Shown here piece after piece: positions 1 to 37,193 of a stretch of 64,000 bases of DNA. The stretch covers positions 548,426-612,425 of the forward strand of contig CAWHXD010000007.1 of NCBI GenBank assembly GCA_963833225.1. The letters run 5' to 3'. Position 1 is the stretch's first letter, and each line of letters begins with the position of its first letter. Source of the DNA: an uncultured Chloroflexia bacterium. Lineage in GTDB: Bacteria > Chloroflexota > Limnocylindria > Limnocylindrales > CSP1-4. Under the pieces are notes generated by a model. The model did no database searches. It was given only the letters and a program-made list of their open reading frames with translations, and was not told the DNA's origin. The translations under genes and the position numbers were made by a program.

Positions 1-266
1 TGGAACTGGGCATCGGATGACCAAATGTACGCGGATTGGCACGGGTTTCGCCACCACGGCTGCGATATTCGCGTGACCTGTGCCCCAGAGGGACGATATC
101 CGTGTTGACGGGCCCACTGGCCGTGTGGCACGATCGGCGGTACCTGTTGCACAGCCCGCAACGCTCGTCCCGGTCTACGCACCGGGAGCGCGGCGGGCGC
201 CCCGCACGTCGCGAGAGTCCCGCGACACGAGCCCGATCGGGCCGGGTGGGGCTGAAGCTCGGAGGC

Positions 267-1679
267 ATGATGACGGCCGAACCCGCTGCCCACGCGGTCC
301 CCACCCTTCACCGCGAGCGCCAGACGGCGATGTACAAGCGGGCGGCGCGCACGCTTCCCGGTGGCACCAACTCCAACTTTCGCGCGTGGGGTGAGGACAC
401 GGTCTACGTGGACCGCGGCAAGGGTGGCCGGGTTTGGGACGTGGACGGCAACGAGTACATCGACCTGCGCATGGGCTACGGCCCGGTGATCTTGGGTCAC
501 GGTGATGGCCGTGTCGACGACTACGTCAACGAGCGGATGCGCAAGGGCGTCAGCTTCTCGCTCACCAGCGAGGACGAGATCCGTGCGATGGAGCTCGTCA
601 GGGAGATGAACCCCTGGGTCGACAAGGCCCGGATGACGGTCTCCGGCACCGAGGCGACGATGCACGCGATGCGTGTCGCCCGCGGCTACACCGGGCGCAC
701 CAAGATCGTGAAGTTCGAGGGCCAGTACCACGGCGTCCACGACTACGCGCTGATCAGCGTGGCACCCAACAGCATGGCCGAGCTGGGCGACGAGGACAAT
801 CCCGTCGGCCTCGCGTGGGGTCGCGGGATCCCGGCGGAGGTCGCGAAGACGATCGTGCCGGCGCGGTACAACAACATCGACTTCCTGCGGCGCCTGTTCG
901 AACGCCAGGGCGATGACATCGCCGCCATCATCGTTGAGCCGGTGCTCGGCAACGCCCAGGGCATCCTGCCCAAGCCGGGGTTCCACCAGGCCATGCGCGC
1001 CCTGACCGAGGAGTTCGGGATCCTGCTGATCTTCGACGAGGTCAAGACCGGCTTCCGGTTCGCGAAAGGCGGCGCGGCGGAGTACTTCGGGATCACCCCG
1101 GATCTCGCGACATACGCCAAGGCGATGGGCAACGGGTACCCGGCGGCCGCCTTCGGAGGACGCGAGGAGGTCATGGCGGTCCTGCCCGACAAGGTCAGCC
1201 ACGGCGGCACCTACGCCGGCAACCGCGTGGCCGCCGCCGCCGCGGTCAAGACGCTCGAGATCCTGCGGGACACGGACGCCCTGGCCACGATCCACCGGAC
1301 GGGCGACACAATGCGGGCCGGGATCAGCGAGATCCTGGACGCGAAGGGTCTCGCCTACCACCTCACCGGCCACTCGTCGATGTTCGGCGTGATGTTCACC
1401 GAGGAGGTCGCGACCGAGTACCGGGACTGGGCGAACACGGATCACGAGCTGTACGACGCGATCGCCCTGGGCATGCACGCCCGCGGCGCGATGCCCGAGC
1501 CTGACAGCCGAGAGCCCTGGTTCGTGTGCGAGGCGCACGCGCAGGGCGACATCGTGGACCGGGTGCTCACGATCTTCGGCGAATCCCTGGACGCGGCGCT
1601 CGAGATGCGCGCCAAGGGCCAGCCGCTGCCGCATGAGACCGAGGCCGCGTACGGCAATACCTCCGGCACGGCTCACTGA
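267..1679 (+). CDS. Class III PLP aminotransferase, glutamate-1-semialdehyde aminomutase-like
   Basis: Motifs DVDGNEYID, SGTEA, FEGQYHG, IFDEVKTGFR and the PLP lysine in TYAKAMGNGYP. GGAGG lies just before ATG 267/270. GGTNSNFR departs from HemL GGVNSPVR, so probably a paralog. Confidence 0.85.
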   Translation: MMTAEPAAHAVPTLHRERQTAMYKRAARTLPGGTNSNFRAWGEDTVYVDRGKGGRVWDVDGNEYIDLRMGYGPVILGHGDGRVDDYVNERMRKGVSFSLTSEDEIRAMELVREMNPWVDKARMTVSGTEATMHAMRVARGYTGRTKIVKFEGQYHGVHDYALISVAPNSMAELGDEDNPVGLAWGRGIPAEVAKTIVPARYNNIDFLRRLFERQGDDIAAIIVEPVLGNAQGILPKPGFHQAMRALTEEFGILLIFDEVKTGFRFAKGGAAEYFGITPDLATYAKAMGNGYPAAAFGGREEVMAVLPDKVSHGGTYAGNRVAAAAAVKTLEILRDTDALATIHRTGDTMRAGISEILDAKGLAYHLTGHSSMFGVMFTEEVATEYRDWANTDHELYDAIALGMHARGAMPEPDSREPWFVCEAHAQGDIVDRVLTIFGESLDAALEMRAKGQPLPHETEAAYGNTSGTAH

Positions 1680-1704
1680 GCCAGGGCGAGGAGGAGAGCT
1701 GCGG

Positions 1705-2478
1705 ATGACCCTCGAAGGGAATGCCGTCCGGTCCGTCGACCGTGCCGCGGCCCTGTTGCTGGCGCTTGGGGAGTGCCGCGGCGAGGCCGGGGTCACGGAG
1801 CTGGCGCGAAGGCTGGGCCTGCACAAATCCACCGCGTCGCGGCTGCTGGCAACGCTCGAGAAGCGCGGCCTGGTGGAGCAGGATGACGAGACGGGCCGCT
1901 ACCGGCTGGGGCTCGTGGTGATCCGGCTTGCCGAACGGGCGGAGCGGACGCTTGACCTGCGGGCGATCGCGATGCCGGAGCTGGACCGTCTCGCCCGAGC
2001 CACGCGCGAGACGACGGGCCTGGGGATCCCCACCGAGGGCGAGAAGATCCTGACCGTGGCCCAGGCCGACGGCCCGAACCTGGTGGCGATGGGGGACTGG
2101 ACCGGCCGCTCCGTGCCGATGCATTCGGTGGCCGCCGGCAAGGTCCTGCTGGCCGCGATGCCCGAGCGCGAGATCCTGCGCCTCGTTCGCCGCGGGCTGG
2201 ACCGCTATACGGATCGCACGATCACCCAGCTCGAGCCGCTGCTCGAGGAGCTGGCGCGTATCCGGCGGCGTGGGTACGCCACCGCGTTCGGCGAGTTCGA
2301 AGCGGGGATGAACGCCGTCGCGGCGCCCGTGTTCGACGCCCGGGGCCAGGTCTCGGCCGCCGTCGACGTGTGGGGCCCGGCCTTCCGCATCACGCCGCCC
2401 CGCATGCCCGAGCTGGTGCAGCAGGTCCGGGAGTCCGCGGCCGCCGTCTCTGTCCGGCTTGGCGGGACCGCCGCCTGA
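1705..2478 (+). CDS. IclR family transcriptional regulator
   Basis: VRSVDRAAALL...GVTELARRLGLHKSTASRLLATL HTH; C-terminal IclR effector domain (IRRRGYA...GMNAVAAPVFD); GAGGAG RBS. Confidence 0.93.
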   Translation: MTLEGNAVRSVDRAAALLLALGECRGEAGVTELARRLGLHKSTASRLLATLEKRGLVEQDDETGRYRLGLVVIRLAERAERTLDLRAIAMPELDRLARATRETTGLGIPTEGEKILTVAQADGPNLVAMGDWTGRSVPMHSVAAGKVLLAAMPEREILRLVRRGLDRYTDRTITQLEPLLEELARIRRRGYATAFGEFEAGMNAVAAPVFDARGQVSAAVDVWGPAFRITPPRMPELVQQVRESAAAVSVRLGGTAA

Positions 2479-2523
2479 TCCTGGCCCCCGCCGCCGCGGG
2501 TTCCGGCGCGCTAGGCTAGGGCG

Positions 2524-3432
2524 ATGAAGATCCCGGCCAACATCGAGGAGAAGTTCCTCGCCCTCCTCGGAGATCCGGTCCTGCCGATCGCCCTGATCCT
2601 GGTGATCGCGGTGATCCTCATCCGCCTGTCGAGCCTCGCCGTCCGCGGCATCGTCAGGAAGATCCTTGACCGTGAGGCGGCCGAGGGCACGGCCCGGGAG
2701 CTGTCGGCCGTCGAGATCCGGAAGCGGTTGGACACCCTTGACGACCTGGCCGGCGGCGTCATCCGTGCCTTCATCCTGGTGATCGCGCTGGTCATGATCC
2801 TGGACCAGCTCAACCTGAACATCGGGCCGGCGATCGCTGGGCTCGGCGTCGTGGGGATCGCGGTCGGGTTCGGCGCCCAGAGCCTGGTTCGCGACTACTT
2901 CAACGGCGCCCTGATCCTGATGGAAAACCAGTTCAGCGTCGGGGACGTGGTCTCGCTTGCCGGGGTGTCCGGCGAGGTCGAGGACTTCAGCCTGCGTCGG
3001 ACCACGCTCCGGGACTTGAGTGGCACTGTCCACACGGTCCCCAACGGCGAGATCCGGGTGGCCTCGAACATGACCCGCGTCTGGGCCCGTGTCAACGAGG
3101 AGATCGAGGTCGCCTACGGCAGCGACATCGACCATGTCGTGAGCACGGTCAACGCCGTCGGCCAGGAGATGTTCGACGACCCCGAGTGGCGTCGCCGGCT
3201 GCTGGAGCCCCTCGTCGTCCTGCGCGTGCAGTCCCTGGGCGAATCGGGCGTGACGATCAAGGTGCTGGGGACCGTCCGCGCCGCGGACCAGTGGGCGGCC
3301 GCCGGCGAGTTCCGCCGCCGCATCCTGAGCGCGTTCGCGGCTGCGTCGATCGAGATCCCGTTCCCCCACCGCGTGGTGATCACGCGGCCAGCGGACACGG
3401 CGTCGCAGGATCCCACGGCCGAGGCGGGCTGA
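2524..3432 (+). CDS. mscS: Small-conductance mechanosensitive channel (MscS family)
   Basis: GIAVGFGAQSLVRDYFNG...ENQFSVGDVV, LRRTTLRD, VPNGEI, IEIPFP. Confidence 0.92.
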   Translation: MKIPANIEEKFLALLGDPVLPIALILVIAVILIRLSSLAVRGIVRKILDREAAEGTARELSAVEIRKRLDTLDDLAGGVIRAFILVIALVMILDQLNLNIGPAIAGLGVVGIAVGFGAQSLVRDYFNGALILMENQFSVGDVVSLAGVSGEVEDFSLRRTTLRDLSGTVHTVPNGEIRVASNMTRVWARVNEEIEVAYGSDIDHVVSTVNAVGQEMFDDPEWRRRLLEPLVVLRVQSLGESGVTIKVLGTVRAADQWAAAGEFRRRILSAFAAASIEIPFPHRVVITRPADTASQDPTAEAG

Positions 3433-3499
3433 ACCACGGCGGCGTCCGCATCTCGTCCGCGTAGAATGGCCGAACCCACGTGTGCTGCTGGAGGGACCC

Positions 3500-5470
<1,971 letters not shown>

Positions 5471-5474
5471 CCGG

Positions 5475-6140
5475 GTGCCGTTCGGCTTCCTGAAGAAGCG
5501 GAAGAGCGACGAGATTCCCGCCGGCGGCGGGACTCGGCCCGCGGGCGTCGATTCCTCGCACCTGCACAGGGGGCCTATCCGCGGCGTGCCGTTCACGGCC
5601 CTGACCGAGGACTGGCGGTTGCGCGGCCACATGGACATCGCCGGGCGGCTGTCGGACGCGCTCAACAAGCGCGAGGCCATCGCCATCCACGATGTCGCCT
5701 GGGGGCCGCCGGATTCGCCGGAGCTCGAGGCGGCACCCGGCCTGCGGAGCGTCGATCCGTACGATCTGATCCTGGTGACCGCGGGCGAGGACTCGCTGCC
5801 GCCGCTGACCGAAACGGAGCGGGCGGCCCTCAAGGTCCACAAGGTGGCCTACGACGTGTCGCTCGAGGTGCCGCCGTTCCGGGTGATCGGCACCGTGTAC
5901 CTGCACCCCGGATCGGAGCCGGACCGGCTGCTGGACCGCGCGAGCGAGATGTTCGTGGCCGTCGCCGAGGCCACCGCTCGCCTGGGGAACGTGGAGGTCA
6001 CGGATCCAGAGGTCGAGGTGATCCTCGTCAACCGGTTCTACCTGCGGGGCGTCGCCCAGGTGGACAAGCGGACAGGGGAGCCGCACCAGCGGCTGCCGGG
6101 CTCGCCGCTGGGCGGGACGAGCTGGCAGGATCGGAGCTAG
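5475..6140 (+). CDS. Hypothetical protein with two tandem DUF6812-like beta domains
   Basis: Starts 4 nt after the acs stop, with typical codon use. Two similar halves (WRLRGHM..GRLSDALN / FRVIGTVYL..DRLLDR..FVAV). Confidence 0.65.
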   Translation: MPFGFLKKRKSDEIPAGGGTRPAGVDSSHLHRGPIRGVPFTALTEDWRLRGHMDIAGRLSDALNKREAIAIHDVAWGPPDSPELEAAPGLRSVDPYDLILVTAGEDSLPPLTETERAALKVHKVAYDVSLEVPPFRVIGTVYLHPGSEPDRLLDRASEMFVAVAEATARLGNVEVTDPEVEVILVNRFYLRGVAQVDKRTGEPHQRLPGSPLGGTSWQDRS

Positions 6141-6154
6141 GGCAGGGGGCGGCT

Positions 6155-6180
6155 GCGAGGCCTCACCGGCCCGGCCTCGC
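6155..6180. terminator. GC-rich stem-loop between convergent genes
   Basis: GCGAGGCC-N10-GGCCTCGC perfect 8-bp stem; no U-tract. Confidence 0.4.
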
Positions 6181-6188
6181 CGTTGGCG

Positions 6189-7418
6189 CTACGCGCGGGC
6201 GGGCAGCGTCCTCCCGAACAGCGAGAACCCCGCCTTTGCCGGTTGGGTGCTCGGGCGGCCGATGATGCGGTCGGCAAGCACGGCGAAGTCCTGGGTGATC
6301 CCGTGTCCAGGTGCAAGCTCGACGAGCGTCCGGCCCTCGTTCGCGGCCCTGACCATGACCGGGCCGGCCGACCGGATCTGGGCGTAGGCCGGCACGCCGA
6401 TGGCCTGCTCGATGTCCGCGGTCGGGACGCCGGTGTTGGCCCGGTTGATGACGAGCTGCAGGCGCTCGCGCATGCCCAGCTCGTCAGCGATCTCGCGGAG
6501 CTTGACCACGGCTCGGATCGCCGGGAGGTCCGGGGTCACCGGGACCAGGATCCGGTCGGCCTTGTCGAACACCGCTCGATTGAGGGGGCTGTACGACGGG
6601 TGCAGGTCGACGATGACGTACTCGACGGACCGCCGGGCGGCGGCGATGGAGGCAGCGACGCGATCGGGGTCGAGGATCTCCGTGTGGATGGGGCTCGAGG
6701 AGAGTGGCAGCACGCGCATCCCCGACGGGTGGGCCGACGCGAGGTCGAAGAACGGGAGCACGGGCGCACCGTCGAGCTCGTCTCGCCAGGCATCGACAAC
6801 GGTCGCCACCCCGTCCATGCCAAGCGAGGTGCTGACGTGGCCGGTGACGGTGTCCGCATCGATGAGCAGGACGCCGAGGCCCCGGCTTGCCAGCATCGCG
6901 GCGAGGTTGGTGGCAACCGTCGTCTTGCCGACGCCGCCCTTGGGGTTGAACACGGCGACCAGCTGGCCGCGCCGACCCCAGTCGCTGGGATTCAGCGAGC
7001 CCTGGAGGACCGGGCCGGAGCCGTCATCGACGGCGACCGACCGGATGCACATCGCCTCGACCCGCCAGCGGATGGCCTCCGCCGAGTAGGGACGGGTGAG
7101 GTACTCGTCATCATCGTGACCGGGACCCGAGAGATCGAGCGAGTCCATGCTCGCCGGGTTGACGATCATGAGCGCCGGGATCGAGTGGTGGGATGCGTGG
7201 AGCAGCGACCATGCCTGGCTCGCCAGCTCGGGCTCGACCTCGGCGTCGACGATCCCCACCGCGATGTCCTTGCGCTCCGCGAGGAGTGTGGCCAGGTCGC
7301 GGACGTGGTCAAGCAGGATCGGGTCGTACCCGCCGGCGTGGAGCTCGGCGGCGACGGGATCACGCTCGGTCGCCGGCAGGAGGATTGCGACTGCCGGTCG
7401 GGAGGGGGACGGCGCCAT
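6189..7418 (-). CDS. Receiver-like domain plus MinD/ParA ATPase (CpaE/TadZ-like)
   Basis: Deviant Walker A PKGGVGKTT, LLIDAD, IVDL, VINR; N-terminal degenerate receiver fold (EYLTRPYS). Confidence 0.85.
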   Translation of the reverse strand: MAPSPSRPAVAILLPATERDPVAAELHAGGYDPILLDHVRDLATLLAERKDIAVGIVDAEVEPELASQAWSLLHASHHSIPALMIVNPASMDSLDLSGPGHDDDEYLTRPYSAEAIRWRVEAMCIRSVAVDDGSGPVLQGSLNPSDWGRRGQLVAVFNPKGGVGKTTVATNLAAMLASRGLGVLLIDADTVTGHVSTSLGMDGVATVVDAWRDELDGAPVLPFFDLASAHPSGMRVLPLSSSPIHTEILDPDRVAASIAAARRSVEYVIVDLHPSYSPLNRAVFDKADRILVPVTPDLPAIRAVVKLREIADELGMRERLQLVINRANTGVPTADIEQAIGVPAYAQIRSAGPVMVRAANEGRTLVELAPGHGITQDFAVLADRIIGRPSTQPAKAGFSLFGRTLPARA

Positions 7419-7423
7419 GGTGA

Positions 7424-9124
7424 TCAACCTTCGGCTTCGGGATCGCGCGCGGTGACGTGGACCGAGCTGTCGTCGGTGCTGGTCACGCGGGCGGCGAAGC
7501 CCGGCATGGTCGGCAGCGCGTCGCGGAAGGACACGTCGGGCCGATGGGTCACGTTGAACACGAACTCGCCGTCCGGTCCGGATGCGACGGCCACGGTCTG
7601 GACACCGGCAAGCCGGCCCAGGTGGCGCTTGAAGCTGGCGATGCTGGCGACAGAGACGAGCCCCGACACGATCACCTGCGTCGTGCGCGGTTCCCCGTCG
7701 GCCGGTCCCTCGGCATGGTTCGGCAGCAGCGACGCGAGCCGGTCCGTGTACGACTCCTCGATTCCGCCGGCGCCGATGCGCGCCGCCAGCGCGGCGGCGG
7801 CCTCGGGATCGAGGTCGGCCGCGGTCTCGTCCTGATCGGCCGACCCGGAGGCAGGTTCGGCCTGATCGCCGGACTCGGCCGCGGACTCGGCCGCGGTCAT
7901 CATCTCGCCGCGATCGGCCGGTTCGCCGGTCGCGCCATCGGTCGCGGATCCCTCGGCCGTCGCGACCGCTTCCCAGGTCGGGACATCGGCATCCGCGGTG
8001 TACGCGCCGGAGCCGTCATCATCAAGCGGCTCGGGCTCGGCTGCCACCGGCTTGCGGGACCCTCCCCAGGCGCTGTCGGCCTCGCGCCAGGGCGAGGGGG
8101 CTGGCACGGGCAGGTCGGTGACCGCCGTGGCGGACGCTGGATCATCGGTGTCATCGGACGCTGCCACCACGTCGGCGACCGGGTTGGCCTCGACGGTCTC
8201 CTGGGCGGGCGTGGCGACGACCGCCTCGGGCTCGGCACTCTCAGGTTCGGCTGCCGTTGACGGAACCGCCTCCACCTCCACCGTCTCGGCGGCGGCCTCA
8301 GGCTCCACGTCCACCGTCTCCACGGCAGCCTCTGCCTCATCGGCCTCGGTGACCGTGGCCGCGGACAGGTCAAGCTGGAGATCGCCGAGATCGGCGAGGG
8401 TGTCGAGAGCCGGCGGCTCCGGCATGGATTCGGCCATCGTCGCGAGCCGCGCGGGATCATCCTCGCTGGAGAGTCGCTCGGTGTAGGTTTCGATCTCCGT
8501 CCGGAATGCGGCGGCGGCCGTCTCGACCTCGCCCACCCGCTGCTCGATGGCGGCGGCGTGCGCGGCGAGCTCCCCGTCAAGCCCAAGCTTGCGGGCGCTG
8601 ATGCGGCTCTCCGTCTCTTCCTTGATCCGCGCGATCTCGGCGCGCGACCATTCCTTGATCTTCGTGATGTCCTCATCGGACCGGACCCGGAGGAGGTCCT
8701 CGCCTTCCTTCGAGCCCGCGCGGATCTGCTCCACGACGGCGGCGACGTCCGCTTCGACCTGGGTCAGGGCCCCGTCACGGGCCGACTCCGCCGTTGCCCG
8801 GATGGCAGCTGAGAGATCCGCCATGAGCTTGGTGGGCTTCCTGGGTGCCACGGGAGCCGGGGGCGGGGCGGATTCCATGTCGATCATCTCGGGCTCCTGG
8901 GCATCGGGCTGGGTGGGGTCGGCTGATAGGTCGGTGGCGCTCTGCCGGTTGGTGGACCGCGGTGTTGCGCTCACGTCGGATGCGGGCCATGCGACCGCGT
9001 CGGTCGCCGGCCGCTCGGTCCCCTCGGCGACCATCTCCGCGCCGTCGCCCGAGGGATCGGTGTCTTGCGTGCGATCAGAACTCCAGGGGAGGCGGAAGCC
9101 GGAGCGCGTGTCGGTGGTCGCCAT
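7424..9124 (-). CDS. Hypothetical acidic protein: coiled-coil region, long disordered D/E/A/P linker and small C-terminal alpha/beta domain
   Basis: 566-aa ORF with typical codon use, directly abutting the ATPase gene on the same strand. Confidence 0.75.
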   Translation of the reverse strand: MATTDTRSGFRLPWSSDRTQDTDPSGDGAEMVAEGTERPATDAVAWPASDVSATPRSTNRQSATDLSADPTQPDAQEPEMIDMESAPPPAPVAPRKPTKLMADLSAAIRATAESARDGALTQVEADVAAVVEQIRAGSKEGEDLLRVRSDEDITKIKEWSRAEIARIKEETESRISARKLGLDGELAAHAAAIEQRVGEVETAAAAFRTEIETYTERLSSEDDPARLATMAESMPEPPALDTLADLGDLQLDLSAATVTEADEAEAAVETVDVEPEAAAETVEVEAVPSTAAEPESAEPEAVVATPAQETVEANPVADVVAASDDTDDPASATAVTDLPVPAPSPWREADSAWGGSRKPVAAEPEPLDDDGSGAYTADADVPTWEAVATAEGSATDGATGEPADRGEMMTAAESAAESGDQAEPASGSADQDETAADLDPEAAAALAARIGAGGIEESYTDRLASLLPNHAEGPADGEPRTTQVIVSGLVSVASIASFKRHLGRLAGVQTVAVASGPDGEFVFNVTHRPDVSFRDALPTMPGFAARVTSTDDSSVHVTARDPEAEG

Positions 9125-9337
9125 GGGTGGGGCACTCTTCCTCGTGAACGGCTGGCAGGGCCGGGGCCTATGTGCACCATAGGCGGCGAAGTGGGCTGTG
9201 GTGCAGTCGCTAGAGGTACCAGCCGGGTGTCCCGGTGGTACCGGGACGCACCACCGTTTCGTTCGATCGAGATCCGCGTGCCGCAGGCTGGAGCCGCCCC
9301 GTGACTCATCTCGTCAGCCCGCCCTACCATGGGGGTC

Positions 9338-10413
9338 ATGCAGCCCTTCCAGCACGCTGAGCTCGCCGCCGGTGACGCCTTCGACGGCCGCCCCGGACAA
9401 GTCCGACCGGTTCGGGCGCGCGCTGCGTGACCTGCGGATCTCGGTGACCGACCGCTGCAACTTCCGCTGCCCCTACTGCATGCCGGCCGAGCTGTTCGGG
9501 CGCGACTTCGCCTTCCTGCCGCGCGACCAGGTGCTCTCGTTCGAGGAGGTCACGAGACTTGCCGCGATCTTCGTCGGGCTGGGAGTGACCAAGCTGCGGA
9601 TCACGGGCGGCGAGCCCCTCGTCCGCCGCGATCTCCCGGTCCTGATCTCGGAGCTCGCGGGGCTCCGCACGCCGGACGGGGAGGTCGTCGACCTCACCCT
9701 GACGACCAACGGTTCCGCCCTCCGGCCGCTCGCCGGCGCGCTGCGGGATGCGGGGCTCGGACGGATCACGGTGTCGCTCGACTCCCTCGACGACGAGATC
9801 TTCGGGCGCATGAACGGGGTGGACTTCCCGGTGTCGAGGGTGCTCGAGGGGATCGCCGCGGCGCGGTCGGCCGGACTCGCCCCGATCAAGGTCAACACCG
9901 TCGTCCGGCGTGGCCTCAACGAGGCATCGATCCTGCCCCTGGCGCGCTGGGCGCGCGAGGAGGGGCTGATCCTGCGGTTCATCGAGTACATGGACGTGGG
10001 GACGACCAATGGCTGGCGGCTCGACGACGTCGTGCCGGCCGATGAGATCCTCGCGAATGATCGATGCCGAGCTGCCCCTTGAGCCCGTGGCGGCCAACTA
10101 CCGCGGCGAGGTCGCGGGGCGTTACCGGTACCTCGACGGCGGCGGCGAGCTCGGCGTGATCGCTTCCGTGACGCGGCCCTTCTGCGGTGATTGCACGCGA
10201 GCCCGCCTCTCCGCCGAGGGCTCGCTCTACACGTGTCTGTTCGCCGCGACAGGGACGGATCTCAAGGGGCCGTTGCGGGACGGGGAGAACGACCAGCAGC
10301 TTGCGGACCGGATCCGTGCGGTCTGGACGGTCAGGGCCGATCGGTATTCCGAGCTCCGGAGCGAGGCGACCGAGCGGCTGCCAAAGGTGGAGATGTTCGC
10401 CCTCGGCGGGTGA
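9338..10413 (+). CDS. moaA: GTP 3',8-cyclase MoaA (frameshifted near 10056, probably also near 9402)
   Basis: [38 protein letters not shown]; C-terminal [21 protein letters not shown] and terminal LGG lie in the next frame. Confidence 0.92.
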
Positions 10414-10519
10414 CGGGACATCACTCGGAGCTCGCGGAGCCTATGCTCCGGGGCGGGCCTGCGGCTGGTCCCGCCCGGCGGCCCGGACCGGACCGGCCCG
10501 GCGGCTCGGCCCGGCGGCT

Positions 10520-10661
10520 CGGCCCGGGCCCGGCTCCAGCTGGCCCGGTCCGGCTCGAGCTGGCCCGTTGGCGCGGCCCGGGCCCGGCTCCGGCTGGCCC
10601 GGCGGCTCCGTGCTGGCCCGTTGGCGCGGCCCGGGCCCGGCTCCGGCTGGCCCGGCGGCTC
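10520..10661. repeat. GC-rich 50-bp direct repeat (2 copies, 53-bp period, plus a partial third)
   Basis: GCTGGCCCGTTGGCGCGGCCCGGGCCCGGCTCCGGCTGGCCCGGCGGCTC at 10559-10608 and 10612-10661; partial copy at about 10520-10548. Confidence 0.85.
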
Positions 10662-10801
10662 GCGTGGCGGTCGTTGGGATGTGCCGCACGATGTCGTGCC
10701 CGTACGGCGGGCGACTCGATGCCACATAGGCGCCCGGGACCATGATCCTGAACGTCGAGCGGGAGCGACGATGACCGGACCATCGCAATGGCCGGAGGGC
10801 G

Positions 10802-10851
10802 GGCCCCGCCGCGAGCAACGGGAGGCCCCGCCGCGAGCAACGGGAGGCCCC
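10802..10851. repeat. 22-bp tandem duplication
   Basis: GGCCCCGCCGCGAGCAACGGGA twice, followed by GGCCCC. Confidence 0.9.
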
Positions 10852-10899
10852 GGCCCTCCACGTAAGTCGGCCGTAAGTGCCCCGCGGGATCATTCGCCC

Positions 10900-11676
10900 A
10901 TGGGAACCCGAGAGTCGCCGGCGGATCGAGGCCGGAGAGCGGCACGGGTCATGCTGGGCATGTGCCTCAGCGAGCTTCGCGGTGCACGGATGGCCGGCGG
11001 GCTCAGCCAGCGGGAGCTTGGGGCTGCCAGCGGCGCGAGCCGGCAGCGTGTCGCCCGGCTGGAACGGGGTGAGGTCGCCACCCCGGACCTGACGCTGATC
11101 GGGTCAATGGCTGCCGTGCTCGGGCTCGCCATGCGCATCTCCATGTATCCGGAGGGCGAGCCAGTCCACGACCGCGTCCAGCTCCGTCTGCTGGCGACCT
11201 TCCGCGACCGCCTCCACCGATCGATCAGGTGGCGCACCGAGGTCCCGCTCCCGATTCCCGGGGACAGGCGCGCATGGGACGCCGTCGCGATCAGCGAGGA
11301 CGGCGGCTGGACGGGCATCGAGGGGATCAGCCGCATGGGCGCAGTTGACGCCACGCTGCGACGCGTGAACCAGAAGCAGCGCGACGACCCCAGGGTCACC
11401 CGGGTCGTGTTGGTCATCAGCGACACGGTTCGCAACCGGGACGCGCTCCGGCTGGGGGTCGCGACCGTTCGCTCGGACTACCCCCTCGAGACCAGGGGTG
11501 TGCTCGAGGCGCTCGGTCGCGGCCGGACGCCACCCCTGAACGGGGTTGCAGTCATTCGCGTCTCAGCGGATCGTCCACAGGCTGTCCACACCCGTGGGAA
11601 ACTCGTGGACGGCGAGGCCCGGTCGTCCGCGGACTTCGTGGACAACCCCGTTGGACGCCTGCCGCCGGGCCGGTAG
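10900..11676 (+). CDS. XRE-type HTH protein with a C-terminal PD-(D/E)XK-like domain
   Basis: LRGARMAGGLSQRELGAASGASRQRVARLERG (XRE HTH); WRTEVPLP..RAWDA..GIEGISR..VVLVI resembles a restriction-endonuclease-like fold. Confidence 0.72.
   Translation: MGTRESPADRGRRAARVMLGMCLSELRGARMAGGLSQRELGAASGASRQRVARLERGEVATPDLTLIGSMAAVLGLAMRISMYPEGEPVHDRVQLRLLATFRDRLHRSIRWRTEVPLPIPGDRRAWDAVAISEDGGWTGIEGISRMGAVDATLRRVNQKQRDDPRVTRVVLVISDTVRNRDALRLGVATVRSDYPLETRGVLEALGRGRTPPLNGVAVIRVSADRPQAVHTRGKLVDGEARSSADFVDNPVGRLPPGR
11571..11645. promoter_or_regulatory. Cluster of DnaA-box-like 9-mers
   Basis: TCGTCCACA 11571, CTGTCCACA 11582, and inverted CGTGGGAAA 11593, CGTGGACGG 11604, CGTGGACAA 11637. Confidence 0.45.
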
Positions 11677-11719
11677 CGTACCCAGTGTCCGAGGGGGCCG
11701 ACGGAGGCCCGCAGCGGAG

Positions 11720-11803
11720 GAGATCACCTCAAGGACGCTGCACCCGGTCAGGCCGAGATCACCTCAAGGCCCGACTGGCGCCCGGCCCGCGATCACATCA
11801 AGG
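11720..11803. repeat. Three 15-bp direct repeats separated by unique 19-20-nt spacers
   Basis: GAGATCACCTCAAGG at 11720 and 11755; GCGATCACATCAAGG at 11789. Confidence 0.8.
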
Positions 11804-12030
11804 GTCGGTGCGCTCTCCGGTTTCCTCGGACGCTTCGTCACCACCGCAGGGTGGCCCGCGAGGGTCGGCCCGCGATGGGCGCCCGGAAGGACGCGATCGG
11901 CATCCCGGTGTCGGTACTCCTGCCGGGCGTCGAAGTTTAAGGCGCACCGCTTCGCGCCACTCGAGGTGCACCGCGGGTCGCTGGCGCGGAATAGGGCCTG
12001 GGCCCGGACAGGGTCCGGAACCGCCTCAGC

Positions 12031-12708
12031 TCACGCGTCCAGGGTTCGCCTCGGGGCCTCCGCCGGAGCCCGGTCGATCGTCGGGTCCGTCCCGGGCGAG
12101 GCGCAAACGTAGTAGCGCAGCCGGTGGCGGCCGTCGTTGCGAACGCGATGACGACGACCGGGCAGGATCCGGATCCCCTTGAGCGGTTCGAGGATCTCCT
12201 CCACGCTGCCCACCTGGATCGTCCCGCGGCCCTCGAACACCACGATCGCGTGCTCCGATCCGGGATGCCGGTGCCAGGCATCCTCGTGACCGGGAGCGAT
12301 CTCGACCTCGGTCACCGTGAATGTCACGGACCCGAAATCGCCGGGCTCGACAAGCAGCGTGCGGCGGATTCCGTCGTCTCCGACAACCCGTGCCTCGGAC
12401 CGCCGGCGGACCGGCTCGCCATCGTCGTGCCAGCGGGGCAGCGCCACCCCGGCCCGCGCTGGATCGATCTCGACCGCGGCCATCAGGGCCAGCGCGTCGA
12501 GGGTCCCCTCGTTGCGGACCCGGTGCAGCTCGGCCGGTGCCTCGTAGAGCACGTCACCCGCCGTGACGACCGCCCTGCGGGACATCCCGTCGCCATGCTC
12601 GAACACGAGCTCGCCACCGGCGAGATACACGATGCTCTCGACGCCGTGGCGGTGGGGGCCGATCTCCACTCCGGGCGCGATCCGGTTGAACTCGAGGCGG
12701 ATCGTCAT
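12031..12708 (-). CDS. Bicupin (two cupin domains)
   Basis: PHRHGVESIVYL..LHRVRN and WHRHPGSEHAIVVFEG..HRVRN. Confidence 0.88.
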   Translation of the reverse strand: MTIRLEFNRIAPGVEIGPHRHGVESIVYLAGGELVFEHGDGMSRRAVVTAGDVLYEAPAELHRVRNEGTLDALALMAAVEIDPARAGVALPRWHDDGEPVRRRSEARVVGDDGIRRTLLVEPGDFGSVTFTVTEVEIAPGHEDAWHRHPGSEHAIVVFEGRGTIQVGSVEEILEPLKGIRILPGRRHRVRNDGRHRLRYYVCASPGTDPTIDRAPAEAPRRTLDA

Positions 12709-12727
12709 CGGGTGGTCCCCGGTGCCG

Positions 12728-13585
12728 TCACGTGACCGGCAGCTCTCGCCCTGCGGCGCGCGCGGCCTCGCGCTTCTGTGCCCAGGCCGCGAGCACGTTG
12801 TCCTTGTGAGGCCGGATGGGGCAGTGCTCGTCGCGGTTGTTGAACTCGTCGCAGTAGCCCAGCGGGACGCACTTGGGCGCCAGGAACGATCCCAGGAACG
12901 GCGACACCCCGAAGATCTCGTGGCGCATGAGCTGGAACAGCCGCCGGATCTCCCATTGGGCCATGGTGCACAGGCGAAGCCCGGACATGTGGATCAGTGC
13001 CCGGAGGTTCGTGGTCATCACCAGGTTCGTCCGGGTTGCGTTGGGGAAGACGAACCGGGCGTCCTCGCCGGGCACCCCGGCGTCGACCAGCTCCGAGTAC
13101 AGGCCGAGCGCCCCGTCCACCTGTTCCTCGTACCGGGAGCGCAGTCCGGGATCTCCCTCGGCGATGGTTGCCGGCAGCATCGTGGCCGCACCCTTGTACT
13201 TGACGTACCGCTGGCTCTGCTGGTCGAAGGCGACGCCCGCGCGATGGCGGACCAGCTGGTGCGACAGCGTGCGCGACACGCCCGACAGGCCGAACGTGAA
13301 CACGATGTGCTCGATGGTGGAGCCGTGCCCGGACTCGATGACGTTGGAGATCAGGCGCTGCATCGAGGCCGGGGCGACCTCCCCCTCCACCGCCCGCCGG
13401 AAGATCTCCTGCGGCTCCAGCTCCGAGTAGCAGGTGCGGCAGGCGGTGTACACCAGCGGCACGTAATACCGCTCCACGATCTCCCTGGTGGGGAACAGGA
13501 GCGTGGCCTTCATTCCCAGCTCGTGGCGACCGGGATTGCGCGGGATGGCGGTCTTGGGTCGGCCGGGAACGGGTGCCTGTGCCAT
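12728..13585 (-). CDS. thyX: FAD-dependent thymidylate synthase
   Basis: GHGSTIEH, SRTLSHQLVRHR...SQRY, EDARFVFP, TNLRAL, AQWEIR. Confidence 0.93.
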   Translation of the reverse strand: MAQAPVPGRPKTAIPRNPGRHELGMKATLLFPTREIVERYYVPLVYTACRTCYSELEPQEIFRRAVEGEVAPASMQRLISNVIESGHGSTIEHIVFTFGLSGVSRTLSHQLVRHRAGVAFDQQSQRYVKYKGAATMLPATIAEGDPGLRSRYEEQVDGALGLYSELVDAGVPGEDARFVFPNATRTNLVMTTNLRALIHMSGLRLCTMAQWEIRRLFQLMRHEIFGVSPFLGSFLAPKCVPLGYCDEFNNRDEHCPIRPHKDNVLAAWAQKREAARAAGRELPVT

Positions 13586-13647
13586 GGTCCGAAGTCTACC
13601 GGCCGGTGGTCGAGGCGGGTACCCGTCGATTTGCGGGGCCCCACGCG

Positions 13648-14982
13648 TTACGACCCCGAGCGCGCCATCCGGCTCGCGAGCGCCCGCCGGTCGGCGTCCC
13701 GGAACCATGTCCAGTACAGGCCGGTCGCGATCGTGTACAGGCCGATGATCGTCACGAAGTTCACCGCGTAGCCGCCCTCGAAGCCGAGGGTCGCCTGGAG
13801 CACCGCGTACCACGCCCCGCCCACGACCCAGCCCACCTGCCACAGCACGCTCATCGCCGCCGCCAGCGAGGCCCGCTCCACCGGCGCGACCTGCTCCATC
13901 GAGAACGCGTTGAAGATCGGATTGCCGGCGTTCATCAGCGAGTTCCGCACCGCCATCGCGAGGACGACGGACCACAGCAGGGGCGAGAAGCCGAGCACCA
14001 CCAGGAACGGGATCGATGCGCCCTGGACGAGGACCACCGAGGTGATCTGCCCGAACCGTCGCGCCAGCCGTGGCTGGGCGAGGATCGCGAGCACCGTCCC
14101 CAGCGATGTGAACGCGAACACGGCGTTGAGCTGGGCGAGGTCCAGGCCGAACTTGCCCTGCACGAAGATGTTGAGGAACGGGATCACCTGGCCGGCACCA
14201 ACCGAGATCAGGAACCCGGGGAACACGAGCTTGGCGAACCGGCCGCGGTCACGGACCTGGATGCCGAGTCGAGCTCGGCGCCGTCGTGGGTCGGCCGGGA
14301 ATGCCGCGGGCTCACCCAGCCGCCGGAGCCTGGATCCCTCCGTCCGCGAGGGGCGATCGTCGGTCAGCCTGCCCACCGTGACCAGGCCAAGGGCGGACAG
14401 CCCCAGCATCAGGACGAGGATCACGCGGTAGACGCCGGGCCCACCCGGCGTGAACCCGAGCCACGACGCGACTGCCGTCGCCACCACCCCGCCGAGGATG
14501 GCCGCGACGATGTTGGTCACGTTCTGGATCGCGAACTGGGCGGCGAACAGCTCGTTGCGGTGCTCGGGCTCGCTGTGCTCGGTCATGAATGGCGCGATCA
14601 CGACGTTGAAGGCGTTGAACCCCATCGTCCACAATGCCGCGGCCACGATCACGACCACCAGCGCCTCGGACACGAGAAGGGCCACCAGCGCCACGATCCC
14701 GGCGATGATCCCCCCGAACAGCACGGCGCGCCGTCCGATCCGGTCCGAGATTGCCGAAGCCGGGAAGGCCACGAGGCCACCGGCGAGCGAGGCGAGGGTC
14801 GACACCAGCCCGATCGTCGCCGGCTCGAACCCGAGGGCGCCGAGGTAGAGATTGAAGTCGATCCACCACAGGCTGACGGCCGCGCCGCTCACGAGGCTGG
14901 TGACGAGGATCAGGCGCGCGTCGGGGTGGAAGCGACCAAAGGCGCGATGGCGGAGGGACGAGGATCGCCCCGGGGTGGTCAC
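13648..14982 (-). CDS. MFS transporter
   Basis: About 12 hydrophobic segments; ISDRIGRR motif A. Confidence 0.9.
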   Translation of the reverse strand: MTTPGRSSSLRHRAFGRFHPDARLILVTSLVSGAAVSLWWIDFNLYLGALGFEPATIGLVSTLASLAGGLVAFPASAISDRIGRRAVLFGGIIAGIVALVALLVSEALVVVIVAAALWTMGFNAFNVVIAPFMTEHSEPEHRNELFAAQFAIQNVTNIVAAILGGVVATAVASWLGFTPGGPGVYRVILVLMLGLSALGLVTVGRLTDDRPSRTEGSRLRRLGEPAAFPADPRRRRARLGIQVRDRGRFAKLVFPGFLISVGAGQVIPFLNIFVQGKFGLDLAQLNAVFAFTSLGTVLAILAQPRLARRFGQITSVVLVQGASIPFLVVLGFSPLLWSVVLAMAVRNSLMNAGNPIFNAFSMEQVAPVERASLAAAMSVLWQVGWVVGGAWYAVLQATLGFEGGYAVNFVTIIGLYTIATGLYWTWFRDADRRALASRMARSGS

Positions 14983-35556: not shown

Positions 35557-37193
35557 CTAGGCCCGCGGGATCTTGCGCGTGTCGAACATGTTCGAACGCA
35601 GCACCTTCGTGCCGGACGGACGGTGGGCGTTGTACACGGAGCGGAACACGTCCGCAGACACCGTCTTGGTTCCCTTCGACCCGTAGAGCACCACCTGGTA
35701 CAGGCGCCCGGAGACGCCACGCCTGGTCAGGTCCAGCCTGGTCAGCGCGCCCACGTTCGTCCGGCTGTCCTTCCTGAACATCGACGACAACGTGTCCAGC
35801 GAAAGCCGCGTCGTGGACCACCGGAAGTACGGGGCGTCGACGTCGTACGGAACCCCGTAGATGGACCGGTCCACGATCCCGCGCAGGTACTTCACCTTGG
35901 AGGTCCCCGGCGCCCCCTTCGATGACACGAACGCGTACTCGTTGTTCTCGGTTGCGCCACCACCCGTCGAGAAGAAGAAGGCCTTGATCACCTTGTCGCC
36001 CTTGTACCGGATCACGGCTCCGGGCTCGTCCGCGACCAGCCTGTCGGTCGCCGCCCGCTCGGCCTCGATGCCTCGGTATACCTGCGACCGCGTGTCGTCG
36101 TAGACATCGTAGGTGCCCTTGTTGGGGTGCCGCCCGCGAATGCCGTACGACCGCGTGGCGATGACCTGGGCCCGCAACGCCTCCCGCGGCCAGCTGACCG
36201 GCATCTCCACCGGTGCGACGCCTCGCACGTACTGGTCGATCCCGAGGTGGTTGATCACGGAGACCGACGAGGACGACGTGCCAAGGATCAGCCGCAGCGA
36301 GCCACGGAACGTGTCGTACGTGGTTGGCTTGGAGAACAGTTGCAGGTAGGACCCCTCCTGGAGCGGCCTGACGTACGGCTGGCCATCGATCCTCGCCCTG
36401 TAGAGCACCGTCGCCGCGTCGGACGCCGTGACCTTCACCCTCCATCGACCGTGGCTGTTGCGCCAGGTCTTGAGCTGGGCGCCCTCGGGGAAGGCCGCCT
36501 CGGTCCCGTCGATGCCCCACGTCCCGCCCCGCCCGTAGATGAGCAGGGGCGTCGCCTTCGTCGCCTTGAACGACGACAGCAAGCGCACCCGGATCAGCCG
36601 CTTCGGGTTGACGGTGGACATCGTCGCGCCCTTGAAGTACGCCGTCAGGATCTCCTCGGCGGTCTGCCCGTCGCTGGCGCGGCCCTTGGCGCCCTGCTGG
36701 CTCATGCCCACGCCGTGCCCGTAGCCCTGGCCGTAGAACTTGACCGTCGAGTCCAGCTTGGTGACGGTCGTCGGCCAGTCAGGTGAAGGCCAGGGGGTCG
36801 GCGTCGGCGTTGGAACGGGCGTGGGCTCGGGTGCGCGTGGCACGGCGTGGGCGTGGGCTCGGGCGTGGGCGTTGGCACGGGCGTGGGCTCGGGTGTCGCC
36901 GTTGGCGCCGGCGTCGCCGTGGGATCCGGCGGAGGCGTGGGGGTAGGGCCAGCCGTCGGCGTCGCCATGGGATCCGGCGTCGCTGTTGATACCGGCGTCG
37001 CTGTGGGATCCGGCGCAGGCGTCGGGTCCGCGAGCGTCACGAATCCCGGATCCGGCGATGCCGGGTTGACGGCGAGGGCGGGTACCACGGTGCCGGCGAC
37101 GATCGACGACGCCATGAGGATGGCCAGGAGCCAGCGCGCAGTGCGAAGGCGGCCCGGCTGCGACTGTGGACGGCTGGTGCTGGCGATGCCCAT
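35557..37193 (-). CDS. SpoIID/LytB-domain secreted protein with P/T linker (frameshift near 36840)
   Basis: Signal peptide, (PT)n linker, GQGYGHGVGMSQ, YVRGVAPVEMP..EALRAQVIATRSY, SQVYRG, FFFSTGGGATE. Confidence 0.85.

Follow-up and report, generated by a model that had tools for sequence, protein, structure and literature searches.

Spaced repeats beside a helix-turn-helix/nuclease-fold gene of a Chloroflexota genome are hairpin loops of a probable RNA gene from a sibling family

Several kinds of bacterial RNA and DNA elements are built from short repeated units or occur as sister copies in one genome. The CsrB/CsrC and Rsm sRNAs are stand-alone genes under a common regulator, and their loop motif is GGA. 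The cuckoo/CcsR, LhrC and csRNA groups are base-pairing siblings with repeated anti-Shine-Dalgarno loops, assembled from modular hairpins in variable number and encoded by several genes per genome; sibling sRNAs under one regulator often act by base pairing. Bacterial Y RNAs are small and present in several copies per genome, with a conserved helix that closes the 5' and 3' ends, and short repeats next to a nuclease-fold gene are familiar from CRISPR mini-arrays and TIGR arrays.

The locus described here lies in a window of 64,000 nucleotides (the whole stretch of DNA that was analysed) from a genome of 3.89 Mb and 71% G+C, with an assembly completeness of 86%; the nearest homologs of its proteins carry the label Candidatus Limnocylindrales or Chloroflexota. 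Its repeats, with a period of 34-35 bases and a nuclease-fold gene alongside, resemble CRISPR mini-arrays and TIGR arrays; however, the spacers are fixed by position and base-paired, and the nuclease-fold gene is optional. The RNA family to which the repeats belong shares modular hairpins and several genes per genome with cuckoo/CcsR, LhrC and csRNAs, but an anti-Shine-Dalgarno 9-mer occurs in only 24 of 183 loops, five genomes revealed no shared exact target, and there is no Rfam match. Small size, a closing helix and several copies per genome are also traits of Y RNAs, although Ro60/TROVE was found in 0 of 6 genomes and the closing helix of the siblings has no bulge. As in CsrB/CsrC and Rsm, the genes appear to stand alone under a common regulator, and they are redundant sisters with several copies of one short hairpin-loop motif (1-5 per RNA), as the available portion of PMC13501541 describes for those systems. 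In contrast to them, the sibling loop is not GGA, CsrA (PF02599) was found in 0 of 5 genomes, no Rfam family matches, and the RNAs have DnaA-like boxes at their promoters and a shared 5'-3' closing helix. Orphan ncRNAs such as the raiA motif, MISL and Chloroflexi-1 (RF01698, listed in PMC2864571) are likewise conserved and covarying without an assigned function, but the present family differs in its multi-copy sibling architecture and its countable loop module, and matched none of the 4227 Rfam families.

The repeats and the folded RNA

A preliminary description of this locus reported three repeat copies with a period of 35/34 bases, the first of them 44 bases 3' of the stop (at 11676) of a gene with a helix-turn-helix (HTH) domain, and this arrangement is borne out. 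Two exact copies lie at 11720-11734 and 11755-11769, and the third, with two mismatches, at 11789-11803. There are no exact copies in the 3.89-Mb genome beyond the two at the locus, and 16 sites have two mismatches or fewer; Markov-resampled windows never showed a comparable arrangement (0/30). The real window contains one other spaced-repeat arrangement, at 36817-36895, which is a low-complexity stretch that mimics an array and is unrelated.

The repeats are the matching loops of three hairpins in a folded RNA and not a guide array, and I am nearly certain that the locus encodes an RNA gene, so that the RNA product suspected earlier is likely. The features are as follows.

10900-11676, plus strand: gene for a protein with an XRE-type HTH and a PD-(D/E)XK fold, an optional neighbour outside the RNA unit (HTH_3/HTH_31 match; model pLDDT 92)
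~11686-11941 (ends approximate), plus strand: structured non-coding RNA of ~255 nt (fold, covariation, RNA-library contigs of relatives)
11687-11831, plus strand: domain 1, closed by the family helix (11687-11694 with 11824-11831), which covaries as helix 1
11711-11741, plus strand: hairpin 1, loop 11720-11732 (repeat 1); in helix 3, 2 of 6 pairs compensate, 98.7% paired
11744-11778, plus strand: hairpin 2, loop 11755-11767 (repeat 2); in helix 5, 4 of 7 pairs compensate, 95.1% paired
11782-11808, plus strand: hairpin 3, loop 11789-11801 (repeat 3); in helix 7, 4 of 8 pairs compensate, 94.2% paired
11832-11936, plus strand: domain 2, a three-way junction; helices 8-12 are 97-100% paired, with 6 compensating pairs

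Each spacer consists of the 3' arm of one hairpin and the 5' arm of the next. In the closing helix 3 of 9 pairs compensate and 96.6% of the cells are paired, and the same helix recurs in the siblings, with a compensated variant. Domain 2 combines a GNRA-capped hairpin (tip 11855-11864) with a long and very conserved rod (11877-11931); it is specific to the sibling type of the window locus and is seen in orthologs across the family. Over the whole fold 98.0% of the cells are paired and 19 of 70 pairs compensate, in an alignment of 26 chosen three-loop orthologs which are kin, so that the significance of the covariation is overstated. None of 500 shuffles reached any of five measures, and slid controls were 33-48% paired. 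The fold z of 11685-11941 is -4.4 on the plus strand and -2.7 on the minus strand, the plus strand is the more stable one in 25 of 26 orthologs, and no conserved open reading frame was found across orthologs in the RNA region.

The third copy had been called degenerate, which does not fit its conservation: 25 of the 26 aligned orthologs have the same A at loop position 9, and across the family A is the most frequent base there (132/183 distinct loops). The spacers had been called unrelated, and they are so to each other (52% identity); compared by position across orthologs they are not, being 75% and 66% identical to those of the window, where an array should have variable ones, and forming covarying stems. 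The early judgement that this is not CRISPR thus stands, with spacers that are fixed by position and base-paired. A search of 11560-11945 as a whole, which includes the spacers, gave no match in either phage or plasmid records. Repeats with a period of about 35 bases beside a nuclease-fold gene can therefore be RNA hairpin loops and not guide arrays, which calls for caution elsewhere.

In four of four RNA libraries, contigs of relatives fall within 11697-11941, a hint of expression from strandless contigs at 80% likeness, with neither DNA nor silent-stretch control. One of these contigs stops at 11941 in an A-run followed by adapter, a hint of the 3' end; a strict scan called no terminator at the locus. 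The promoter and the HTH gene have no RNA-contig cover, which is no evidence either way because both are less conserved than the RNA. Against Rfam 15 (4227 families) the locus had no match, the best E value of 0.84 being at chance level, and for nine sibling loci the sole match was an unrelated TPP riboswitch, located at L090:445-553 on the minus strand, about 1 kb from a sibling RNA. Identity with SRP RNA, RNase P RNA or tmRNA was rejected, as each of these genes is located elsewhere in the genome, and 6S RNA had no match in the 86%-complete host genome.

A family of sibling RNAs

A DNA search of 69 other genomes of the genus turned up a single strong locus in each of 61. Where it adjoins a close homolog of the HTH gene, conservation extends over the whole of ~11570-11940 and is not limited to the repeats. 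The genome itself holds four siblings that share the promoter and the closing helix, namely the window locus and three more, listed here with one from another genome.

C19:161451, minus strand: sibling of 74 nt with one loop
C19:920121, minus strand: sibling of 180 nt without the loop motif
C8:72967, plus strand: sibling of 155 nt with three other hairpins
L095: loop-less sibling of 187 nt with an MFS gene downstream

Members of the family, of which a genome has up to five, have the closing helix in common, carry 0-5 loop hairpins and have phased DnaA-like boxes ahead of their promoter. Among 165 distinct RNAs, 11 have no loop hairpin, 110 have one, 5 have two, 31 have three, one has four and 7 have five; most siblings are 62-82 nt long with one loop, and orthologs of the window RNA have from 1 to 5. 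The stems are variable and the loops invariant among siblings, with a 13-nt consensus from 183 distinct loops, G-M-G-A-U-N-R-C-M-U-C-A-A, of which six positions were fixed by the search pattern, although the alignments A1 and A2 show equal invariance.

A metagenome scan yielded at least 121 family stretches. Of two search models, R1 matched in 32 of 141 genomes of the class, and R2, which was built from 59 of 106 short siblings, in 41 of 61; by family, R2 matched in 16/17, 20/20 (mostly with 3-5 copies) and 4/19 genomes, and the RNA was found in 0/3 to 0/5 of the genomes searched from a streamlined family (f2). Outside the class R2 matched in 0 of 81 genomes, a search with the short pattern gave four stray matches, and a promoter pattern matched in 18 of 401 genomes, all from the own family. 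In viral contigs the short pattern gave nine stretches, none with boxes or closing helix and most inside apparent reading frames, and these were rejected; the fuller pattern gave 0 matches there. A low-G+C look-alike on contig C5 was also rejected as a chance match in foreign DNA. Positions 1-14000 of that contig, at the start of a contig of 68% G+C, have 37-41% G+C and frameshifted genes, a probable contamination or chimera. By these searches families f1 and f3 and genus g220 carry the RNA, and it was not found in f2 or most of f4. Judged from the matches, the sister RNAs form a family in one class (Limnocylindria by the homolog labels) of Chloroflexota from soil and fresh water; small word shares were uninformative about habitat. 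A literature search, with motif-survey supplements and most subscription journals outside its scope, found no DnaA-controlled sibling sRNA family, and a term search of the available portions of PMC5737381 and 10.64898/2026.07.10.737749 gave no match. The sibling sRNA family is real and undescribed, and what is added here is the family, its loop module and its exclusive tie to strong box clusters.

The usual gene order is moaA, the RNA element and a purine nucleoside phosphorylase gene, the latter in the same orientation at 70 of the 71 loci where the DNA extends far enough. The HTH gene is present at 16 of 73 distinct loci and missing at the other 57, and it is an optional occupant of the gap. 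In a comparison of homolog flanks at 31 loci, two of which gave no row, the motif lies downstream of 8 of 8 HTH homologs with at least 52% identity and of 0 of 21 with 28-45%. The repeat is thus unlinked to the HTH gene family, contrary to the tie that had been suggested. In the present genome it is the phosphorylase gene that is missing (window 11941-12030), without a homolog elsewhere in the assembly, and the RNA is intact. At 34 of 70 loci the phosphorylase gene has its own leaderless -10, which was not found at the other 36, and in 32 of 38 short siblings of one type the next gene downstream is oriented towards the RNA (convergent), a count from a crude gene caller of which the main clusters were confirmed separately. 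Because of the convergent neighbours, and because the phosphorylase has its own -10 and is absent here, the sibling RNAs are best read as stand-alone transcripts. Nucleotide-salvage genes recur beside the siblings L102, L187, L064, L074 and L100 (thymidine kinase, uracil phosphoribosyltransferase, nucleoside phosphorylase, ThyX and NUDIX), which may be chance synteny.

Promoters with DnaA-like boxes

The preliminary description had pointed to sites like DnaA boxes adjoining the repeats, and four phased boxes are indeed present upstream of the RNA. I take them to be DnaA boxes from their fit to the consensus, and the binding is predicted.

11571-11579 and 11582-11590, plus strand: DnaA-like boxes 1 and 2, kept in orthologs while the flanks vary
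11604-11612 and 11637-11645, minus strand: DnaA-like boxes 3 and 4, from ortholog spacing; box 4 ends 5 bases before the -35
11651-11656 (-35) and 11674-11679 (-10), plus strand: putative sigma-70-type promoter with a 17-base spacer, from ortholog conservation

In the orthologs the -35 keeps TTG in 27 of 30, and TAnnnT is found at a fixed distance in 30 of 31; a strict consensus promoter scan called nothing at the locus in this genome. Of 31 orthologs, 23 have exactly the same spacing of boxes and promoter and 30 match it to within one base; since the spacing is kept while the intervening bases vary, it points to a protein that would bind here on the DNA. The last ~37 codons of the HTH gene run through this promoter, and the stop position varies among orthologs, so that the overlap in this genome is due solely to a late stop.

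Clusters of three or more boxes occur at only four places in the genome, all of them promoters of the sibling RNA family; for looser box matches, a count of three is reached in 106 of 19443 background windows. Among the matches listed for siblings with enough upstream DNA, 105 of 106 have at least one box and 91 of 106 at least two. No such cluster was found in the dnaA leader, and no boxes upstream of the 16S rRNA, tmRNA, SRP or RNase P genes. It is fairly probable, on the sequence evidence, that DnaA controls the promoters of the sibling RNAs, in which case the strongest DnaA-like box clusters of the genome would drive RNAs and not dnaA, and, in a lineage of soil and fresh water, post-transcriptional control would be coupled to replication state. 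Two-box promoters before rsmG (C6:30458) and a parA-family gene (C8:444241) are consistent with a small DnaA regulon. A conserved palindrome, which is not a DnaA box, lies just 5' of the dnaA promoter across the own family (C6; L318, L325, L329, L331-L334) and is a candidate operator of another regulator.

Proposed function and rival explanations

The reading I tentatively favour, and which might well be correct, is that the sibling RNAs act as a sponge that titrates a protein, with the logic of CsrB but without CsrA. Titrating RNAs such as CsrB, as far as the available portion of PMC13501541 describes them, are built in this way, with invariant loops, variable stems, a variable number of loops and redundant genes that share a regulator, and the titration reading is drawn from this match. 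In such a scheme DnaA would bind the four phased boxes and tie the transcription of all siblings to the replication cycle; each independently transcribed and structured sRNA would, less surely, offer every loop as a binding site for one RNA-binding protein, which the siblings would titrate as CsrB/Rsm RNAs titrate CsrA, with a capacity that depends on how many loops and sibling genes there are. The closing helix that the siblings share could provide stability or a second protein site, and domain 2 would be a module added in the sibling type of the window. The loop cannot be the whole function, because 11 of 165 siblings, including two of the four in this genome, do not have the motif; furthermore, a fixed RNA target could still pair by wobble with the commonest loop changes (C to U and A to G), which counts against titration. 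RRM proteins were found in 0 of 5 genomes, and no RNA-binding protein family, except one beta-CASP nuclease cluster, was seen among the 49 of 70 listed neighbour representatives. KhpA/B and cold-shock proteins were rejected as partner since they are present also in genomes without the RNA and do not discriminate. The minimal 62-nt sibling and the natural series of 1 to 5 loops are ready-made baits for a partner protein. A bolder version is decidedly speculative and rather doubtful, namely that siblings titrating an undescribed RNA-binding regulator are the chief transcriptional output of DnaA in the class, a Csr-like circuit wired to the replication initiator. DnaA-driven ncRNAs may also be a wider class across phyla, of which the sibling family is one instance.

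In the main alternative, the loops would pair with other RNAs as redundant seeds for translation-start regions, anti-Shine-Dalgarno where position 9 is C and anti-AUG where it is A. Loops 1 and 2 here do share 9 bases with the 3' tail of the genome's own 16S rRNA, and the common loop variants are wobble-compatible; however, the exact 9-mer of the tail is restricted to 24 of the 183 distinct loops, loop position 6 takes all four bases, and the loop is partly self-paired. A 10-base complement in the dnaA leader of this genome occurs in only 2 of 6 genomes of the genus, and 21 exact complement matches in five genomes, from a search that covered exact matches and not short or imperfect seeds, resolved into 16 sibling loci and 5 unrelated single sites without a shared target. 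Against rRNA, tmRNA, SRP and RNase P RNA no convincing duplex was found relative to shuffled loops (one result of 0 of 20 in 15 tests), and I regard base pairing as rather unlikely, though worth keeping in mind. Less probable again is a structural or polymerase-binding RNA, in which the loops would serve for RNA-RNA contacts, or the long form would stand in for a missing 6S/Ms1-type RNA. It would account for the palindromic loop core of most copies, for the highly conserved long rod of domain 2 and for the failure to match 6S in an 86%-complete genome, but G or A at position 6 breaks the self-complementarity in 16 of 183 loops, most siblings, at 62-82 nt with one loop, are too small for a promoter mimic, the fold is multibranched and lacks a central bubble, and there is no Rfam 6S or Ms1 match.

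Box clusters as in datA can titrate DnaA, and the dispersed clusters of this genome, strictly phased and its strongest, might be such a DNA-level element, or an iteron origin, with the RNA secondary; DnaA titration by the boxes could also be a side role. As the primary explanation this seems improbable, given that the boxes are phased to a promoter which is always followed by a covarying RNA. The locus is G+C-rich without an A+T-rich unwinding element, its neighbours are moaA and nucleoside phosphorylase and not dnaA or rep, and the stretch between dnaA and dnaN, which has degenerate boxes, is a likelier origin. The suggestion that the repeats are origin iterons is not supported, since the pairing covaries as in a folded strand and the locus is 0.7-1.0 Mb from dnaA in the four of four genomes where the distance is readable, which rules out an origin linked to dnaA. 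A cis-acting leader (attenuator or riboswitch) of the phosphorylase gene is more improbable still: the nearly constant downstream phosphorylase, the nucleotide-salvage genes flanking several siblings and the U-rich tail after the closing helix would suit it, but not the phosphorylase's own -10 at nearly half of the loci, its absence from this genome, the convergent neighbours of siblings of another type, or the 3' end hint at 11941. The earlier proposals of a guide array or of operators for the adjacent HTH/nuclease-fold protein drew on a true observation, that this protein combines an XRE-type HTH with a PD-(D/E)XK-like fold, and the motif does lie downstream of all eight close homologs. Yet with the gene missing at 57 of 73 loci, all 21 of the more distant homologs without the motif alongside, spacers that are conserved stems without phage or plasmid match, and no canonical E-x-K lysine after E141, either proposal is refuted as an obligate link and is scarcely credible otherwise.

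Concerning this protein, residues 93-222 match 2okf_B (Z 9.6), 1y88_A (Z 9.4) and 2vld_B (Z 9.1) with an rmsd of 2.8-3.2 over 98-107 aligned residues, and Foldseek with the whole protein returned mostly HTH matches. Its gene family has 11 matches in the genome and looks like a roaming family. G+C-rich tandem repeats lie 5' of the gene (10479-10661 and 10802-10845), and similar but unrelated repeats flank several paralogs. Upstream, moaA (9198-10413, plus strand) is split over two frames near 10010-10080, by a frameshift or an assembly error, and is intact in an ortholog.
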